DNA from: a virus
Strand: one strand, 5' to 3'
UHGV virus genome: UHGV-1734956
Length of the DNA: 13,322 nucleotides
The notes under the pieces are model-generated. The model searched no databases. It worked only from the letters and a program-made list of their open reading frames with translations, and was not told the DNA's origin. Positions 1 through 10,188 of the stretch are shown piece after piece (the stretch's first letter is position 1; each line of letters begins with the position of its first letter). Both the position numbers and the translations under genes were made by a program.

Positions 1-38
1 ACCCTGTTTTCCTTGCCATAGACACCATCCCTGTCTTC

Positions 39-64
39 CCCCACATGATGTGGGGTTTTTTTTT
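39..64 (+). terminator. Rho-independent terminator-like hairpin (CCCCACA / TGTGGGG stem, 3-nt loop) followed by a T9 run
   Basis: Read directly: ccccacaTGAtgtgggg then ttttttttt on the + strand. May terminate a rightward-transcribed flanking gene or belong to the att core region. Confidence 0.55.
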
Positions 65-183: not shown

Positions 184-1164
184 TTATAACGTCACTCCGC
201 CTTTTAGTGGATTCAGAGCGACGGCATTTTGCAGATAGTCAGGCGCAAGGTGCGCATAGGCCATCGTCTGCTGAATGCTCGCATGTCCCAGAATCTGTTG
301 CAGTGCGATTATATTGCCCCCATTCATCATGAAATGGCTTGCGAATGTATGCCGCAGGATGTGGGTTGCCTGATTGGGTGGTATATCAGGTTTCACTCTG
401 CGTAAAATCCCGCAAAATTTCTCATAATCAACTTTGAATAATTTGGCGCTGGCCTCCTCTTTAACTTTTTTCTCCAGTTCCTCAGAAATCGGCACGGTTC
501 GCTTTTTACCGTTTTTGGTTTTCAGGAAGGTAACCCTGCAATTTGTAATCTGTGCTGGTTTTAGCGTGGCAACTTCCGTCCATCTTCCTCCAGTGCTCAG
601 ACATAAAAGCGCGACAAGTAAGTCATCACCAGCCAAAACATTTAACAGTTTTTCGATTTCTGCTTTTTCCAGGAACGTCATTTCAGGGTTGGCCTCCGCC
701 AGTGGCGGCAGTCCGTGAATTGGGTGTTGCCCGGAAAATTCATCCAATTGAATTAATTTTGTGAACATGCCGGATAATCGGTACATGTCACGGTTTATCG
801 TTGCGGCACTGATACCATCACGTAGTCGCATGGAACGATAATCCATCAAAGCCCTTTTGCTCATCCTGCTCACTGGTATATCACCTATGCCGCTGATGGT
901 TTTGAGTAGATGATTAAACTCTTTTGTTCCATGCTCGTGGTTTTGCCCGTGATATTTCCACCAGATGTCCAGCAACTCACTCAAAGTCCGGCGGTCTGCT
1001 CGCTGGCCTCCCCATTCTTTCTGACTGGCATTGGCGATTGTGTATCGCTCAAATGCTAGTGCTTCAGCTTTTCTTTCGAATTTCCTGCGGATGCGTTTTC
1101 CGTCGCGACCGCGAGGTCTAATGTCCACTTCATAGCGACCATCATCGAGCTTCTTAATTGCCAT
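184..1164 (-). CDS. int: Tyrosine recombinase / phage integrase (P2 Int-like)
   Basis: C-terminal ...ATHILRHTFASHFMMNGGNIIALQQILGHASIQQTMAYAHL is the tyrosine-recombinase catalytic region. N-terminus MAIKKLDDGRYEVDIRP matches what I recall of P2 Int. ATG at 1164 has a GGAGG 8 nt upstream, whereas the longer-ORF ATG at 1194 has none. Stop TAA at 184-186. Confidence 0.9.
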   Translation of the reverse strand: MAIKKLDDGRYEVDIRPRGRDGKRIRRKFERKAEALAFERYTIANASQKEWGGQRADRRTLSELLDIWWKYHGQNHEHGTKEFNHLLKTISGIGDIPVSRMSKRALMDYRSMRLRDGISAATINRDMYRLSGMFTKLIQLDEFSGQHPIHGLPPLAEANPEMTFLEKAEIEKLLNVLAGDDLLVALLCLSTGGRWTEVATLKPAQITNCRVTFLKTKNGKKRTVPISEELEKKVKEEASAKLFKVDYEKFCGILRRVKPDIPPNQATHILRHTFASHFMMNGGNIIALQQILGHASIQQTMAYAHLAPDYLQNAVALNPLKGGVTL

Positions 1165-1233
1165 AAGAAAGCCCTCCGGCGCTGTATTCACCATCTTGGT
1201 AGCAAATGGTGAAAATGTAATCTTTATATAGAG

Positions 1234-3196: not shown

Positions 3197-3420
3197 TGCC
3201 GGACAACGTAGATTTTATTCAGGAACAACAAGCTGAATTACTGGAGCGCCAGATTAACGCGGCAAGGGTAAAACATTGCGGTGCTTCTGCGCTGGTTTGC
3301 GAAGAGTGTGACGCGCCAATACCTGCTGCCCGTCGTGCGGCTTACCCGTCAGCCACGCGTTGTGTTTCCTGTCAGTCAGTCTTTGAAGCAAAAAACAAAC
3401 ATTACCGGAGAACGGCATGA
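3196..3420 (+). CDS. TraR/DksA-family C4 zinc-finger protein (P2 orf82-like)
   Basis: CxxC-N(about 20)-CxxC: C-EEC ... C-VSC in a 74-aa protein; AAGGA upstream; stop overlaps the next start (ATGA). Confidence 0.65.
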   Translation: MPDNVDFIQEQQAELLERQINAARVKHCGASALVCEECDAPIPAARRAAYPSATRCVSCQSVFEAKNKHYRRTA

Positions 3421-3695
3421 GTATTCGTATTGAAATTGGCGAACGTTATGTCGTTACCAGTGACAGCTTTCAGTTTATTCTCCACGAGAAAAAGAGAGCG
3501 GAAAGCGGTAAAAACGCCGGTCAGGAATGGCTGGCGGTGGTTGGTTATTACCCGAAATTAAGCCAGCTCGTTTCCGGCCTGATGCATCACGATATTCTGA
3601 CCGGAAGCGCAAAGTCTTTTGCTGATTTAAACGCGCAGGTTGAGCAAATTAGTCAGCAATGTCTGACTGCATTTAACCATAAGTTCAGCCAATAA
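3417..3695 (+). CDS. Hypothetical early protein (P2 orf83-like position)
   Basis: 92 aa, coupled to the upstream ORF, GGAG upstream. Confidence 0.55.
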   Translation: MSIRIEIGERYVVTSDSFQFILHEKKRAESGKNAGQEWLAVVGYYPKLSQLVSGLMHHDILTGSAKSFADLNAQVEQISQQCLTAFNHKFSQ

Positions 3696-3709
3696 GCAGG
3701 GGACAGGTC

Positions 3710-4528
3710 GTGAATAACGTTGTTCATTACCACGGAACTCCTGTGTGGGGTGATGCAGGAAATGTTCATCGTATTGCTGTGAGTGGTGCAGGGGCATTTG
3801 TTTCCTATGCCCGGCCTGACCAACTCGTTGCCTCATTTAAACATGCTAAGTCCGTGGCGATTGATAATGGGGCTTTTTCAGCATGGAAAAGTGGCCTTGT
3901 TATCGACTGGCAGAAGTTTTATCAGTGGATTGCCCCTCATTATTATCATCCCAAACTGGCTTTCTTTGTCATACCTGATGTGGTGGACGGGGATGAAGCG
4001 GACAACGATGCGCTGATTAAAGCGTTGCCTCGTTGTTTTAGAGAAAAAGCTACTCCAGTCTGGCATCTGCATGAATCCTTGCAACGCCTTGTCGAACTTT
4101 GCCGGGAATGGCCTCGTGTTTGTTTTGGTTCTTCTGGCGATTACGCCACTGTCAGAACTGCACTCTGGCATAGCCGGATGCAGGATGCATTTGAAACCAT
4201 TTATCTTAAATATGGTTTTAGTACCCGCATTCATGGTCTGCGCATGCTTGATGGGCGCATTCTCGGTAATTATCCGCTGCATACAGCAGACAGCACTAAC
4301 CTTGCCTGTAACGTACCAAAATATCTTATCAAATATCCCGAACTGACAAGGGCAATCAGTGAGGCAGACTATACACAAAAACTTTCTGAGAAGGAGTTGA
4401 AGGCGTTCATCCTTAAAGGACGGTGTGCAATTCTGAAAAATTCTGTGGAGTCGGTTTTTCCTCCATCGATTGCTGAATGGGCATCAAATAGCCTTGCTCC
4501 ATCACAAATGGAGTTAGCTTTCGCATGA
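3710..4528 (+). CDS. Hypothetical 272-aa protein inserted between the orf83-like gene and A; function unknown (weak, speculative TGT/DpdA-like motif resemblance)
   Basis: GTG start with a purine-rich SD; stop overlaps the A start (ATGA). No equivalent gene at this position in canonical P2 as I recall it. Motifs HGTPVWGD and AIDNGAFSAWKSG loosely resemble the TGT-family TPxFMPVGT and DSGGFQ motifs. Confidence 0.6.
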   Translation: MNNVVHYHGTPVWGDAGNVHRIAVSGAGAFVSYARPDQLVASFKHAKSVAIDNGAFSAWKSGLVIDWQKFYQWIAPHYYHPKLAFFVIPDVVDGDEADNDALIKALPRCFREKATPVWHLHESLQRLVELCREWPRVCFGSSGDYATVRTALWHSRMQDAFETIYLKYGFSTRIHGLRMLDGRILGNYPLHTADSTNLACNVPKYLIKYPELTRAISEADYTQKLSEKELKAFILKGRCAILKNSVESVFPPSIAEWASNSLAPSQMELAFA

Positions 4529-6738
4529 CGATTTATGCTTACTCCTGGAACAAACCAAATGAAGCAATAGGACGCGAAAGATCTCTTACACGTGACGAGA
4601 TGCGTCAGGTGCAAGGTGTTTTATCCACGATTAACCGCCTGCCTTACTTTTTGCGTTCGCTGTTTACTTCACGCTATGACTACATCCGGCGCAATAAAAG
4701 CCCGGTGCACGGGTTTTATTTCCTCACATCCACTTTTCAGCGTCGTTTATGGCCGCGCATTGAGCGTGTGAATCAGCGCCATGAAATGAACACCGACGCG
4801 TCGTTGCTGTTTCTGGCAGAGCGTGACCACTATGCGCGCCTGCCTGGAATGAATGACAAGGAGCTGAAAAAGTTTGCCGCCCGTATCTCATCGCAGCTTT
4901 TCATGATGTATGAGGAACTCTGCGATGCATGGGTTGATGCGCATGGTGAAAAAGAATCGCTGTTTACGGATGAGGCGCAGGCTCACCTGTATGGTCATGT
5001 TGCTGGCGCTGCACGTGCTTTCAATATTTCCCCGCTCTACTGGAAAAAATACCGTAAAGGACAGATGACCACGAGGCAGGCATATTCTGCCATTGCCCGC
5101 CTGTTTAACGATGAGTGGTGGACTCATCAGCTTAAAGGCCAGCGTATGCGCTGGCATGAGGCGTTACTGATTGCTGTCGGGGAGGTCAATAAAGACCGTT
5201 CTCCTTATGCCAGTAAACATGCCATTCGTGATGTGCGTGCGCGCCGCCAGGCAAATCTGGAATTTCTTAAATCGTGTGACCTCGAAAACAGGGAAACCGG
5301 CGAACGCATCGACCTTATCAGTAAGGTGATGGGCAGTATTTCTAATCCTGAAATTCGCCGGATGGAGCTGATGAACACCATTGCCGGTATTGAGCGTTAC
5401 GCCGCCGCAGAGGGTGATGTGGGGATGTTTATCACGCTGACCGCGCCGTCAAAGTATCACCCGACACGTCAGGTCGGAAAAGGCGAAAGTAAAACCGTTC
5501 AGCTTAATCACGGCTGGAACGATGAGGCATTTAATCCAAAGGATGCGCAGCGTTATCTCTGCCGTATCTGGAGCCTGATGCGCACGGCATTCAAGGATAA
5601 TGATTTACAGGTCTACGGTTTGCGAGTCGTCGAGCCACACCACGACGGAACGCCGCACTGGCATATGATGCTTTTTTGTAATCCACGCCAGCGTAACCAG
5701 ATTATCGAAATCATGCGTCGCTATGCGCTCAAAGAGGATGGCGACGAAAGAGGAGCCGCGCGAAACCGTTTTCAGGCGAAACACCTTAACCGGGGCGGTG
5801 CTGCGGGGTATATCGCGAAATACATCTCAAAAAATATCGACGGCTATGCACTGGATGGTCAGCTCGATAATGATACCGGCAGACCGCTGAAAGACACTGC
5901 CGCGGCTGTTACCGCATGGGCGTCAACGTGGCGCATCCCGCAATTTAAAACGGTTGGTCTGCCGACAATGGGGGCTTACCGTGAACTACGCAAATTGCCT
6001 CGCGGCGTCAGCATTGCTGATGAGTTTGACGAGCGCGTCGAGGCTGCACGCGCCGCCGCAGACAGTGGTGATTTTGCGTTGTATATCAGCGCGCAGGGTG
6101 GGGCAAATGTCCCGCGCGATTGTCAGACTGTCAGGGTCGCCCGTAGCCCGTCGGATGACGTTAACGAGTACGAGGAAGAAGTCGAGAGAGTGGTCGGCAT
6201 TTACGCGCCGCATCTCGGCGCGCGTCATATTCATATCACCAGAACGACGGACTGGCGCATTGTGCCGAAAGTTCCGGTCGTTGAGTCTTTGACTTTAAAA
6301 AGCGGCATCGCCGCGCCTCGGAGTCCTGTCAATAACTGTGGAAAGCTCACCGGTGGTGATACTTCGTTACCGGCTCCCACACCTTCTGAGCACGCCGCAG
6401 CAGTGCTTAATCTGGTTGATGACGGTATTATCGAATGGAATGAGCCGGAGGTCGTGAAGGCGCTCAGGGGCGCATTAAAACACGGGCTGAGAACGCCAAA
6501 CCGTCAGCAAAGAAACGGAAGCACGTTAAAACCACATGAAATTGCACCATCGGCCAGACTGAGCCGGTCGGAACGATTGCAAATCACCCGTATCCGCGTT
6601 GACCTTGCTCAGAATGGAATCTTGCCCCAGCGATGGGAGCTTGAGGCGCTGGCGCGTGGGGCAACCGTAAATTATGACGGGAAACAATTCACGTATCTGG
6701 CTGCTGATGAGTGGCCGGGATTCTCAACAAACATATAA
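4525..6738 (+). CDS. A: Rolling-circle replication initiator (P2 gpA-like HUH endonuclease)
   Basis: 737 aa. HUH-type motif EPHHDGTPHWHMMLF (about 5630-5675) and paired-tyrosine motif AAGYIAKYISKN (about 5800-5835), as in phiX174 gpA / P2 gpA-type initiators. Last gene of the early operon. Confidence 0.9.
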   Translation: MTIYAYSWNKPNEAIGRERSLTRDEMRQVQGVLSTINRLPYFLRSLFTSRYDYIRRNKSPVHGFYFLTSTFQRRLWPRIERVNQRHEMNTDASLLFLAERDHYARLPGMNDKELKKFAARISSQLFMMYEELCDAWVDAHGEKESLFTDEAQAHLYGHVAGAARAFNISPLYWKKYRKGQMTTRQAYSAIARLFNDEWWTHQLKGQRMRWHEALLIAVGEVNKDRSPYASKHAIRDVRARRQANLEFLKSCDLENRETGERIDLISKVMGSISNPEIRRMELMNTIAGIERYAAAEGDVGMFITLTAPSKYHPTRQVGKGESKTVQLNHGWNDEAFNPKDAQRYLCRIWSLMRTAFKDNDLQVYGLRVVEPHHDGTPHWHMMLFCNPRQRNQIIEIMRRYALKEDGDERGAARNRFQAKHLNRGGAAGYIAKYISKNIDGYALDGQLDNDTGRPLKDTAAAVTAWASTWRIPQFKTVGLPTMGAYRELRKLPRGVSIADEFDERVEAARAAADSGDFALYISAQGGANVPRDCQTVRVARSPSDDVNEYEEEVERVVGIYAPHLGARHIHITRTTDWRIVPKVPVVESLTLKSGIAAPRSPVNNCGKLTGGDTSLPAPTPSEHAAAVLNLVDDGIIEWNEPEVVKALRGALKHGLRTPNRQQRNGSTLKPHEIAPSARLSRSERLQITRIRVDLAQNGILPQRWELEALARGATVNYDGKQFTYLAADEWPGFSTNI

Positions 6739-6799
6739 AAATGATTGAAATGGTTGATTTTGCTTCCACTTGATGGTTGGTATCAGCAACTGATGGATC

Positions 6800-7060
6800 A
6801 TGCGGAACTGCGTGGCAATCTTGCTTTGGAAGCATGTCATTATGACTAATGCATACATTACTAGCTATGCGTCCGGTTCCGCCATTGTACTCGTGCAAGA
6901 GTCTCCGGCTGATGGCTATTGTTTACAAATTATGGTCAAAGAGAATCTGACCCTCTACGAGTTGGTCGGAGGGACTGAGATCGTCAGTGATAACTGCAGC
7001 CGTATGGGAGAAATAAATAATCCCAACCGTCCATATTTCTACCTTCACGCGTGCCCATAA
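6800..7060 (+). CDS. Small hypothetical ORF in the variable hotspot (86 aa; alternative start at 6842 gives 72 aa)
   Basis: Open frame only; no recognisable motif and weak ribosome-binding context. Position corresponds to the variable region downstream of A. Confidence 0.3.
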   Translation: MRNCVAILLWKHVIMTNAYITSYASGSAIVLVQESPADGYCLQIMVKENLTLYELVGGTEIVSDNCSRMGEINNPNRPYFYLHACP

Positions 7061-7081
7061 TCTGTCACCACGTTGACCATA

Positions 7082-7124
7082 GAAAATCCCGCCGACGCTG
7101 AAACTCGCTTTCAGTGCTGGCGGG
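7082..7124 (-). terminator. Long GC-rich hairpin (about 16-bp imperfect stem, loop CTCGC) followed on the - strand by AUUUUCU; putative terminator for the RT gene, possibly bidirectional
   Basis: CCCGCC(7088-7093)/GGCGGG(7119-7124) outer stem with CTGAAA/TTTCAG inner stem. Lies between the convergent + small ORF / A operon and the - strand RT gene. Confidence 0.45.
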
Positions 7125-7187
7125 GTTGAACAACGAGCTTGCGAGGCGTTAGGGATGTCGAAATTTCATATGACTGTTCGCTTTAAT

Positions 7188-7231
7188 GCTTAACGAAGTC
7201 ATGTTGAGTTAATAACATTGTTTCGTTAAGC
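7188..7231. repeat. Perfect 10-bp inverted repeat GCTTAACGAA ... TTCGTTAAGC with a 24-nt loop that itself contains ATGTT...AACAT; overlaps the RT stop codon
   Basis: Read directly: arms at 7188-7197 and 7222-7231; the RT TAA (7226-7228, - strand) lies inside the right arm. Confidence 0.6.
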
Positions 7232-8770
7232 GCTGTGTTCCTTGTCGAATAAGTTCACTTCTTCTGGTGTAATATCAGTATCCATTTCTTCGAATGCATC
7301 TAAATCCACAATTTTTGTTTTTTTCAAAATTGATAGTATTTTCTGTTTGTTTTTATTTTTGGCTGAACCCGGAATCCACTCTACATCCCACAGGCCATCA
7401 ATGGTAAATGTTTTTTTTCCCTTGAGTTCATCATTTATGCGTTGACATAGGGCTGTTTTGTAATCGCCTTCCCATTGTGTGTGTATCTTCCCTTGAACTC
7501 GTTGAAACCAAATATCTAACATTTCAGTATTTGGTTGTTTACCTAGTTTACAATGAAGTTGTTGTAACTTGCCAAATTTGAGTTCATCGTCGTCATAAAG
7601 GAAGGTCAAGAGTTTTGCGAAAATAGCCATTCCCACTGGGTAGGTGGTTGGGTTTTTAGCCATGATGCTTGAAATAATTCCAAGCATTGCATCTAGTTGA
7701 TGCCCACTATTTGTGATCTTTTTCTTCCTAAATAATTTCCGCAAGAAATCATTTAAATATCTGACTGTAATTTTGGAGTTTTGATGTTTTAAAGAAAATA
7801 AATATATTGCATACAACATTTTCTGTAGGGAGTTGAACGACCCTTCTATAATATATTCTTTTTTTGCTGATTTAAGGGAGTGAAGAATGATGTCGTCATG
7901 TAGTTCTGTTTTTCTTGAGTTTAAATCAAGCCCAAACTCACCTAAGACCTCAACCAAACACTTTGAGATTTTGTCCAAATCATCTTTACTGCTTGAAAAT
8001 ATTCGATAATCATCTCTGTAGCGAACTACTTTGTAATCCGTTATTTTTTGCTCTTCGGTTTTTTTTCTTAGCTGTAAATCAATTTCGCCTAAAATTAATT
8101 CGGCAAATGTATCCATCAACGTACTACCCAATGGTATTCCGTTTGTCTGATTACTCATCATCATCTGGATATGAGTGTCAATCAATCGTCCTGGGTTATT
8201 GTTATTTTCTTTCTTTTTGGCCTCTTCTTTTGAGATGAATACCCATTCAAAGCTATGAGTGTAAATAGAAGGGTAGAAGTTTGAAATATCTGTGCTGAAC
8301 ATGAACTCATACTCAAGAGCCAATGAAAGACTTTTTTGTTCAAAATCTTCCCACCAGTTTAAAACAGATGCAGCTACGTTTGAGGTGTTCTTTTTGCTCA
8401 CTGGGATACTTGAGCATAAAAAAAGATCATTAGACTCAAACTCTCTAAATTTATTCCTTATAGCATTCCAGTTGGAAGAGGATGTAATAAGTTTACAAAA
8501 ATACACGTAGTACAGAGGATTAATTAGTGTTATTCGTCGCCAGCTATATAAGCCATCTTTGCTGACTAAAACCTCGTAATTTATATTCTTCCCCATCAAT
8601 GACTTGGAGTCAGGTTGGAAGTTGATTTTACCTTCATCTATCGCGGAGTTGATTTCTTCAAGCAAGGAAGAAAAATCGACATAACTGGGTAGCTCCAGAG
8701 TAGTGTATGAATCATGCTGCAGAAAATACTTAAGCGCTCTACCAGTAGTTAATTCATAAATCTTTTTCAT
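7226..8770 (-). CDS. Reverse transcriptase, defence-associated Abi-type (Abi-P2 / AbiK-like class), 514 aa
   Basis: RT motifs in the translation: FSTDISNFYPSIYTHS (motif A), NGIPLGSTLMDTFAELILGEID (motif B), VRYRDDYRIF (YxDD motif C), LDLNSRKTEL (motif D), then about 200 aa of C-terminal extension. ATG at 8770 (MKKIYEL...) chosen because the AT-rich body begins there; the track ORF extends to a TTG at 8896. Strongly AT-rich relative to flanks. Confidence 0.85.
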   Translation of the reverse strand: MKKIYELTTGRALKYFLQHDSYTTLELPSYVDFSSLLEEINSAIDEGKINFQPDSKSLMGKNINYEVLVSKDGLYSWRRITLINPLYYVYFCKLITSSSNWNAIRNKFREFESNDLFLCSSIPVSKKNTSNVAASVLNWWEDFEQKSLSLALEYEFMFSTDISNFYPSIYTHSFEWVFISKEEAKKKENNNNPGRLIDTHIQMMMSNQTNGIPLGSTLMDTFAELILGEIDLQLRKKTEEQKITDYKVVRYRDDYRIFSSSKDDLDKISKCLVEVLGEFGLDLNSRKTELHDDIILHSLKSAKKEYIIEGSFNSLQKMLYAIYLFSLKHQNSKITVRYLNDFLRKLFRKKKITNSGHQLDAMLGIISSIMAKNPTTYPVGMAIFAKLLTFLYDDDELKFGKLQQLHCKLGKQPNTEMLDIWFQRVQGKIHTQWEGDYKTALCQRINDELKGKKTFTIDGLWDVEWIPGSAKNKNKQKILSILKKTKIVDLDAFEEMDTDITPEEVNLFDKEHSA

Positions 8771-8976
8771 AATTAGTGATTTCTTCTTAAGTTGCGCACA
8801 AATAACTACCTGTTTTCTATCATGATAACGATGCGAATGCGAGCAATTCAGGAAGTGCATTACTCTGCATCGAAGCGCACGCAAGTCAGAGAACAATAAC
8901 TGCCTGGCGACATCAGGACTGGCGCGCTAGTTGAGTGGTCATGCAACTGCATTAAAACCGCCCCATGAAGCGGGCG

Positions 8977-9164: not shown

Positions 9165-10188
9165 TCAGCCGTTGTCAGTGTCCAGTGAGTAGTTTTTAAA
9201 GCGGATGACCTCCTGACCGAGCCAGCCGTTTATCTCGCGGATCCTGTCCTGTAGCGGGATAAGCTCATTACGGACAAAGACCTTTGCCACTTTCTCAATA
9301 TCACCCAGCGACCCGACGTTCTCCGGCTTGCCGCCCATCAACTGAAAGGGGATGCGGTGCGCGTCCAGCAGGTCAGCGGCGCTGGCTTTTTTGATATTAA
9401 AAAAATCGTCCTTCGTTGCCACTTCACTGAGCGGGATAATTTTAATACCGTCGGCTTTTCCCTGTGGGGCGTAGAGAAACAGGTTTTTAAAGTTGTTGCG
9501 GCCTTTCGACTTCACCATGTTTTCGCGAAGCATTTCGATCCTGCACGGCATCAGTGACGTACATGATGTATCCGGCATGTGCGCCGTTTTCGTAATACTT
9601 GCGGCGGAACAGCGTGGCCGACTCATTCAGCCAGGCAGAGTTAAGGGCGCTGAGATATTCCGGCAGGCCGTACAGCTCCTGATTGATATCCGGCTCCAGC
9701 AGGTGAAACACGGAGCCGGGCGCGAAAGGTGTCGGCTCGTTGAAGGACGGCACCCACCAGTAAACATCCTCCTCCACGCCACGGCGGGTATATTTTGCCG
9801 GTGAGGTTTCCAGTCTGATGACCTTACCGGTGGTGCTGTAACGCTTTTCCAGAAACGCATTACCGAACACCAGAAAATCCAGCACAAAGCGGCTGAAATC
9901 CTGCTGGGAAAGCCACGGGTGCGGAATAAACGTTGAAGCCAGAATATTACGTTTGACGTAAATCGGTGAGCTGTGATGTACGGCAGCACGCAGGCTTTTT
10001 GCCAGACCGGTAAAGCTGATCGGTGGCTCATACCATCTGCCGTTACTGATGCACTCGACGTAATCCAGAATGTCACGGCGGTCGAGTACCGGCACCGGTT
10101 CACCAAAGGTGAATGCCTCCATTTTCGGGGCGCTGGCGGTCATTTTTTTTGCCGCAGGTTGCGGTGTTTTCCCTTTTTTCTTGCTCAT
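9165..10188 (-). pseudogene. Q: Portal protein (P2 gpQ-like) interrupted by a frameshift near 9535-9550
   Basis: Two overlapping - strand ORFs in different frames (9487..10188 and 9165..9626) together give about 340 aa, close to the 344 aa I recall for P2 gpQ. Start overlaps the terminase stop (TGATG). No single intact ORF exists in this sequence. Confidence 0.6.

Follow-up and report, generated by a model that had tools for sequence, protein, structure and literature searches.

DpdA1 of the Queuovirinae Enterobacteria phage 9g and Escherichia phage CAjan is a validated preQ0 DNA transglycosylase. The whole preQ0 pathway adjoins dpdA in these phages, 25–32% of guanines (G) are replaced, and the DNA product is dPreQ0 or dG+; dense modification of this kind protects against restriction. 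According to the literature, DpdA1 acts without a DpdB-type partner. The third group of Hutinet 2019, termed "DpdA-only" or "singleton", comprises PHROG 887 proteins from gammaproteobacterial phages without preQ0-synthesis genes, and the Supplementary Data of that study place Salmonella phage SEN1 (YP_009217891), HK106, SfI, SPN3UB, BTP1 and Salmonella phage 7-11 in it. DNA of phage 7-11 carries dADG at 0.02% of G, whereas the mycobacteriophage Orion, also DpdA-only, has no modification at all. In DNA of Pantoea phage MED16, dADG makes up 0.13% of G alongside trace amounts of dPreQ0, and the restriction enzymes tested were not noticeably affected by this dADG (PMC8306585). The bacterial enzyme, bDpdA of Salmonella Montevideo (7UI4), is ~400 aa long, carries a CxCx2Cx22H zinc site and a 128-residue insertion, Ins8, and requires the ATPase DpdB and ATP (PMC10164549). 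It shares three Asp with TGT (an acid/base at the end of β3, a base-binding residue and a nucleophile at the end of β8) and has an extra base-binding His (PMC10164549). Cap10 of type IV CBASS (9NTN) is a compact, zinc-less TGT-like barrel that binds protein-linked 7-amido-7-deazaguanine and is found in a defence operon with Cap9 and a CD-NTase. Its equivalent residue set is D73/S74, D122, K154, H226 and D248, with H226 and D248 described as a pair.

We analyzed a 13,322-nt stretch of the virus genome UHGV-1734956 (the window), which is a P2-type prophage. Between its orf83-like gene and the replication gene A lies an additional gene, here called dpdA-like, and the surrounding features are as follows.

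184–1194, minus strand: integrase, followed by repressor C, cox, B, the orf80–83 homologues and A
3417–3695, plus strand: orf83-like DUF5405 gene, the upstream neighbour (Pfam PF17399, E 2e-13)
3648–4535, plus strand: 888-bp cassette in place of 108 bp of P2 (P2 28000–28107), from BLASTN
3698–3703, plus strand: Shine-Dalgarno-like AGGGGA, 6 nt 5' of the GTG start, read from the sequence
3710–4528, plus strand: dpdA-like gene with a GTG start, 272 aa, from the ORF list and sequence
4525–4528, plus strand: ATGA stop/start overlap of the dpdA-like gene and A (TGA 4526–4528, ATG 4525–4527)
4525–6738, plus strand: gene A, the coupled downstream gene for the rolling-circle replication endonuclease, 737 aa
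7226–8896, minus strand: AbiP2-type reverse transcriptase, followed by portal, terminase and scaffold genes

An earlier note on this DNA had described a 272-aa ORF with a GTG start and an ATGA overlap with A, and the coordinates (3710–4528, plus strand) agree with that description. It had also proposed that the gene is an extra one at a point where P2 runs from orf83 straight to A, which both the P2 record and BLASTN bear out. In canonical P2 (AF063097), A (28034–30319) directly overlaps orf83 (27769–28044), with no gene between them. Compared by BLASTN, the window and P2 are 99.4% identical up to position 3647 and 93% identical from 4536 onward; the break points of the cassette come from this alignment and from one with a P2-type prophage that has no dpdA-like gene. 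The cassette supplies a new 3' end for orf83, the intergenic Shine-Dalgarno sequence and the dpdA-like gene, and it extends 11 nt into A. Both flanking genes are altered: orf83 in its final codons, and A in roughly its first 24, which makes A 24 N-terminal residues shorter. The gene A product, with its remodelled N-terminus (737 aa here versus 761 aa in P2), shares ~96–97% identity with A of P2-type phages over the sequence that begins at residue 5. At the nucleotide level, homology to SEN1 is limited to positions 3717–4531. A foreign origin by base composition was considered and set aside: the GC content of the cassette (46–48%), unlike that of the AT-rich reverse-transcriptase island, resembles the remaining early operon, so base composition is uninformative on this point.

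The flanks of the insertion were matched in 1,612 of 5,426 complete E. coli genomes, and only three of these carried the dpdA-like gene. A nucleotide-level homologue occurred in 106 of the 5,426 genomes (about 2%), comprising the window allele in 3 and a ~70%-identical 186-type allele in 103. E. coli BUCT2930 encodes a CDS of identical length (WP_001439018.1) that RefSeq labels "hypothetical protein", the annotation given to all of the nucleotide-level E. coli homologues among the matches listed. At the protein level, we found 3,867 database homologues (E ≤ 1e-3), and an exhaustive search yielded 632 homologous cluster representatives. Given these homologues and the BUCT2930 CDS, the 272-aa ORF is no chance reading frame. 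The SEN1 gene and the more common E. coli copies reside on 186-type (Eganvirus) backbones, usually with Dam just upstream, whereas the window copy sits on a true P2-type (Peduovirus) E. coli backbone without Dam. Descriptions of the gene family go back to 2019, and the published list already includes a P2-group example; what is new here is the true P2 backbone in E. coli, the absence of Dam and the rare allele (3 genomes).

Sequence comparisons place the encoded protein with phage DpdA. Its one PHROGs match is phrog_887, "queuine tRNA-ribosyltransferase" (E 8.8e-87), which is also matched by 9g DpdA (E 2e-98), the 7-11 protein (7e-74) and the MED16 protein (3e-70); the same PHROGs search returned no match between E. 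coli Tgt and phrog_887. Identity to 9g DpdA is only ~20%. An hhalign comparison of the 72-sequence family profile with 9g DpdA nevertheless gave 93% probability (E 3.4e-7), pairing AIDNGAFSAW with FLDSGAFSAY, VWHLHE with CFHAGE, IHGL with VHGF and ADST with CDSS. The closest phage proteins by tblastn were SEN1 gp38 and SW9 gp39 (78% identity), whose genes occupy the same place 5' of the replication gene and which are the only viral proteins in the MED16 DpdA branch (PMC8306585). A bat-associated siphovirus (63%), MED16 DpdA (gp38, 52%) and Drexlerviridae phages (47%) came next, and HK106, SfI, 7-11, SPN3UB and BTP1 were more distant (35–41%; 7-11, 35%). The guess of a TGT-like DpdA in the earlier note is thus upheld by PHROG 887, by the alignment to 9g DpdA and by the presence of SEN1 in the list of Hutinet 2019.

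Profile libraries were less informative. Scans of the protein against Pfam, NCBIfam and PADLOC gave no match. Pfam at E ≤ 10 yielded only noise for 16 aligned family members, the window protein included, and the PF01702 search proposed earlier was accordingly negative. Sequence searches of the PDB returned chance matches only, whether started from the single protein, a 16-sequence profile, a 95-sequence profile or 9g DpdA. With hhalign, the family profile had no significant match to E. coli Tgt alone, nor to a gammaproteobacterial TGT profile compiled from 79 sequences at genome loci; that profile is shallow (Neff 2.2), so the missing match does not count against a relationship. The published HHpred analysis of the MED16 protein, 52% identical to ours, reported 99.2% to Thermotoga maritima TGT 2ASH (PMC8306585). 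The link to canonical TGT runs via structure and phage DpdA only.

The AlphaFold2 model, built with 72 homologues (mean pLDDT 92.3, pTM 0.89), consists of eight alternating strands and helices forming a (β/α)8 barrel. The TIM-barrel TGT fold is thus present in the model, and no unrelated family was assigned by any search, so that neither of these refuting outcomes named in the earlier note occurred. Cap10 was the top match in a Foldseek search of the PDB (E 1.3e-5) and the only one below E 1e-3, with DpdA 7UI4 at rank 9; the best solved structural matches were Cap10, DpdA 7UI4 and archaeal and bacterial TGT. Among viral models in BFVD, 32 matches were found at E ≤ 1e-3, including a Vibrio phage nt-1 protein. 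All named matches were phage "queuine tRNA-ribosyltransferase", and beyond the 32 the scores dropped to noise. The barrel is compact. At 272 aa, it is about 100 residues shorter than bacterial Tgt and, unlike E. coli Tgt (PF01702; CDCYTC at residue 302), has no such cysteine motif. Ins8, the large DNA-binding insertion of bDpdA, is missing, and the β8–α8 insertion measures ~30 residues. The zinc site of TGT and bDpdA (CxCx2C...H) is absent from the dpdA-like protein, and none of its five Cys is conserved. The CxCx2C motif is also absent from 9g DpdA and Cap10; because the validated 9g DpdA lacks it too, the missing zinc site is not disqualifying for a phage DpdA.

The residues expected of the active site are retained. 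D52, D90, K113, H119, H175, D194 and S195 are invariant in 72/72 sequences. Across 95 more diverse sequences H119, H175, D194 and S195 remain invariant, and D52 and D90 are kept in at least 90%. In the model these conserved residues line the C-terminal ends of β3, β4, β5, β7 and β8, as in bDpdA and Cap10, and the DpdA-only group shares the same invariant D/D/H/H/D set. The codons concerned are the following.

3863–3865, plus strand: Asp52 (IDNGAF), last residue of β3; predicted general acid/base, aligned with LDSGAF of 9g DpdA
3977–3979, plus strand: Asp90 (IPDV), just past β4; predicted base-binding Asp
4064–4066, plus strand: His119 (VWHLHE), at the end of β5; aligned with a His of 9g DpdA
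4232–4234, plus strand: His175 (IHGLRML), in β7; aligned with VHGF of 9g DpdA
4289–4291, plus strand: Asp194 (ADST), in β8; predicted nucleophile, aligned with CDSS of 9g DpdA

Asp90 holds the same place in the order of key residues as D122 of Cap10 and D130 of bDpdA, and Asp194 is topologically equivalent to Asp256, the nucleophile at the β8 end of bDpdA. His119 is probably a base or ribose contact, and His175 could be the partner of the nucleophile, by analogy with H226 of Cap10. Two motifs had been singled out from the sequence beforehand; AIDNGAF does hold the acid/base Asp52, but HGTPVWGD does not provide the base-binding Asp, which is instead Asp90 in IPDVV.

Taken as a whole, the most likely explanation, and one that we hold with good though not full confidence, is that the gene product is a phage DpdA acting on double-stranded DNA, a TGT-superfamily enzyme of compact, zinc-less build. 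[quoted passage not shown] Asp90, together with Lys113 and His119, would read the base, and a free 7-deazaguanine would then resolve the covalent intermediate through its N9, taking the place of guanine. Like DpdA1 of 9g and CAjan, the protein would act without a DpdB-type partner. Several points speak against this explanation: the negative Pfam, NCBIfam, PADLOC and PDB sequence searches, the missing zinc site and Ins8, the dependence of bDpdA on DpdB while no dpdB–K genes were detected in the window, the results for MED16 and Orion, and the broken portal gene of this prophage.

E. coli has the queuosine pathway. The window ORFs include no folE-, queC-, queD-, queE-, queF- or yhhQ-like genes, and neither a preQ1 riboswitch nor any further RNA of relevance turned up in an Rfam scan. 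The lack of such supply genes places the gene in the DpdA-only group, where it still counts as a DpdA and differs from 9g and CAjan in standing alone. Since the prophage has no folE, queD, queE or queC, the base must be supplied by the host, and it would be drawn from the queuosine pathway as preQ0, its ADG precursor or preQ1. Judging from MED16 (52% identity) and 7-11 (35%), relatives in which less than 0.2% of G is modified, as dADG, the expected product is a sparse, probably motif-specific dADG or dPreQ0. For a 33-kb genome this would mean tens of sites rather than bulk replacement, a number that itself suggests a motif-specific enzyme.

The neighbourhoods of homologues tie the family to 7-deazaguanine supply and to DNA methylation. 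A gene for QueD (6-carboxytetrahydropterin synthase) precedes the homologue in Caulobacter phage DMCA, and the homologue begins at the final base of that gene. The copy in Escherichia phage Phleasolo is coupled to a gene of the VUT/YhhQ family, the family of the preQ0 transporter, and in a lambdoid prophage the homologue P0126 follows a Vut_1 gene. P0126 (42 member sequences) joins a complete DpdA domain (residues 1–263) to a complete Dam domain (283–452). A second apparent Dam–DpdA fusion, P0097, was rejected: its Dam profile covers 1–201 of 253 positions and the first 43 DpdA residues are missing, so it probably arose by deletion between adjacent genes. Because P0097 is truncated on both sides, it was not counted as Rosetta-stone evidence, and the full-length P0126 was used instead. 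In 186-type prophages, including that of E. coli ATCC 8739, a TraR/DksA zinc finger, a Dam methylase, the DpdA homologue and gpA are encoded in that order, with Dam immediately 5' of the DpdA homologue. Other phages fill the position before gpA differently.

SEN4: two DNA methyltransferases before gpA
Klebsiella phage phi5.4: one DNA methyltransferase before gpA
Phage 186: a PAPS-reductase-domain protein (Orf84) before gpA

The slot directly 5' of gpA in Peduoviridae is therefore a recurrent slot for DNA-modification cargo. According to the phage 186 record, translation of A needs orf84 to be translated to its end, a dependence that fits the ATGA coupling of the dpdA-like gene to A. A promoter scan found no sigma-70-like site directly upstream of the dpdA-like gene, and the P2 record has the early operon transcribed from the early promoter Pe. 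The gene would thus have no promoter of its own, being transcribed within the early operon (from Pe in P2) and coupled in translation to A. From this position and coupling we infer that synthesis of the protein is confined to infection or induction and accompanies replication; the co-expression with replication, as read from the sequence, should hold. A role in lysogenic conversion or defence was considered and rejected because the gene lies in the early lytic operon, which is repressed in P2 lysogens; it also lies outside the P2 cargo hotspots.

What the phage gains is the weakest step of the proposed mechanism. Most likely the phage would thereby escape at least one host defence that reads the modified sites. 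The earlier note had cast the gene as a DNA-modification, anti-restriction gene. Its first half persists as a prediction from sequence, but the second is not established: with 0.02–0.13% of G modified in relatives and no noticeable effect of MED16 dADG on the enzymes tested, anti-restriction is unproven. An enzyme that acts on DNA for some other end is the alternative that survives best, although we consider it unlikely. It might place physiological marks (signals for replication, packaging or gene expression), act mainly as a glycosylase, or be a near-neutral passenger. In its favour are the same low modification levels of DpdA-only relatives, the lack of a noticeable effect of MED16 dADG on the restriction enzymes assayed, the tight coupling to gpA, the recurrent pairing or fusion with Dam, and the rarity of the gene in P2-type prophages (3/1,612 genomes). 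Against it, all 7-deazaguanine systems with a known role are defensive or counter-defensive, and the strong conservation of catalytic residues across the 632 cluster representatives argues for selection. Protecting a few sites may also be enough against Type I and further multi-site systems. Sparse marks may have a physiological, non-defensive role, perhaps exerted together with Dam, and this is the most interesting reading of the locus.

A related and rather doubtful proposal is that the compact, zinc-less DpdA-only clade, with Cap10 as its nearest solved structure, is functionally distinct from the bulk-replacing DpdA1. Its members would insert ADG, an amide base, directly at a few defined sites and, with Dam, would create a composite epigenetic mark for gpA replication initiation or for the evasion of a single defence, not for anti-restriction in general. 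Host QueC forms ADG as an intermediate, and direct insertion of this base would explain dADG in phages that have no DpdC- or QueC-like gene.

Two further alternatives concern the substrate rather than the purpose, and both appear highly improbable. The protein could be a Cap10-like enzyme that, instead of modifying DNA, binds or transfers a protein-conjugated 7-amido-7-deazaguanine, as Cap10 does at the N-terminus of the CD-NTase, perhaps interfering with or mimicking deazaguanylation-based immunity; only its structural rank suggests this. The two proteins share the order of key residues at only ~10% identity, and the compactness common to both is likely why Cap10 ranks best; since the validated 9g DpdA is equally zinc-less, compactness alone explains the match. 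The window contains no Cap9 (QueC-like) gene, no CD-NTase with an M(G/S)G(G/S)GG N-terminus and no effector, and PADLOC found nothing for the protein. In relatives whose products were measured, the base is in DNA, and homologues are fused or adjacent to DNA methyltransferases. A tRNA-directed transglycosylase that exchanges a G (G34 or a different one) of host or phage tRNAs, tuning translation in the lytic cycle, would fit the modelled TGT-superfamily fold and the name used by PHROG and many GenBank records, but that name is inherited by homology only while 9g DpdA inserts preQ0 into DNA, the zinc subdomain that stabilizes binding of TGT to nucleic acid is absent, no Pfam TGT model matches, the context is one of DNA modification and replication, and E. 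coli already has Tgt.

A probable phage DpdA at this locus bears on what DpdA-only phages gain from replacing less than 0.2% of their guanines. There is an annotation gap, because the family is covered by none of the models in Pfam, NCBIfam or PADLOC; a new profile or annotation rule would give many prophages a named DNA-modification gene. A copy in the well-understood P2/186 early operon of E. coli also provides a tractable system: the standard strain ATCC 8739 carries a homologue, and the queuosine pathway of the host can be deleted gene by gene.

The window has two further peculiarities downstream of A. The portal gene is split via an 11-bp deletion; this prophage copy is probably defective and, with its portal gene broken, may never be packaged. 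The AT-rich AbiP2-type reverse transcriptase fills the old/tin hotspot of P2.

The position directly upstream of gpA is occupied by variable cargo across Peduoviridae, and this cargo is repeatedly of a DNA-modification type, as in phage 186, SEN4 and Klebsiella phi5.4:

Locus L095, 3744-4748: Orf84 of phage 186, which has a PAPS-reductase domain (PF01507, E 1e-43)
Locus L096, 437-2426: SEN4 Dam and cytosine methyltransferase
Locus L097, 1296-2252: Klebsiella phi5.4 DNA methyltransferase

Dam, a DpdA homologue and gpA are consecutive in a 186-type prophage of E. coli ATCC 8739 (locus L104, 3624-7677), where the homologue gene shares about 70% nucleotide identity with the window gene. ATCC 8739 is a common laboratory strain, and its prophage offers an experimental system at hand. 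The N-terminus of the window's gene A (4525-4600, + strand) is remodelled and 24 residues shorter than that of P2 (MTIYAYSWNKPNE... versus MAVKASGRFVPPSAFAAGTGKMFTGAYAWNAPRE...), since the cassette extends over the first 11 nt of A.

DpdA homologues were also found in lambdoid prophages. One lambdoid prophage (loci L098 and L099, both 5540-7383) encodes a full-length DpdA-Dam (PF05869) fusion of 460 aa (P0126, 42 member sequences) directly after a transporter gene of the Vut_1/YhhQ family. A homologue with 66% identity (P0068) is encoded in a lambdoid E. coli prophage (locus L103, 5001-5810) between holin and endolysin genes, an unusual location for a DNA-modification gene; a ParB_N/N6_N4-methyltransferase gene lies three genes downstream.

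Two further genes of the window are of note:

7226-8896, - strand: reverse transcriptase, 556 aa, matching the PADLOC AbiP2 (DRT) model (E 5.6e-160)
9165-10188, - strand: portal gene Q, split into two reading frames, with the break near 9532-9539

Frame -3 of gene Q encodes residues 1-219 and frame -1 residues 221-339. Comparison with the intact homologue of E. coli BUCT2930 revealed an 11-bp deletion, which accounts for the split, and this copy of the prophage is probably unable to produce virions. The AbiP2-type reverse transcriptase lies in an AT-rich island (GC 31-38% versus ~48-55% in its surroundings), which occupies the position of the old/tin cargo hotspot of P2.

An Rfam search returned a partial match to Hrs1, an Hfq-regulated sRNA, at 1-63 (- strand), adjoining the integrase end of the prophage; the match is clipped by the window edge, and its 47.3 bits fall short of the gathering score (56.4).
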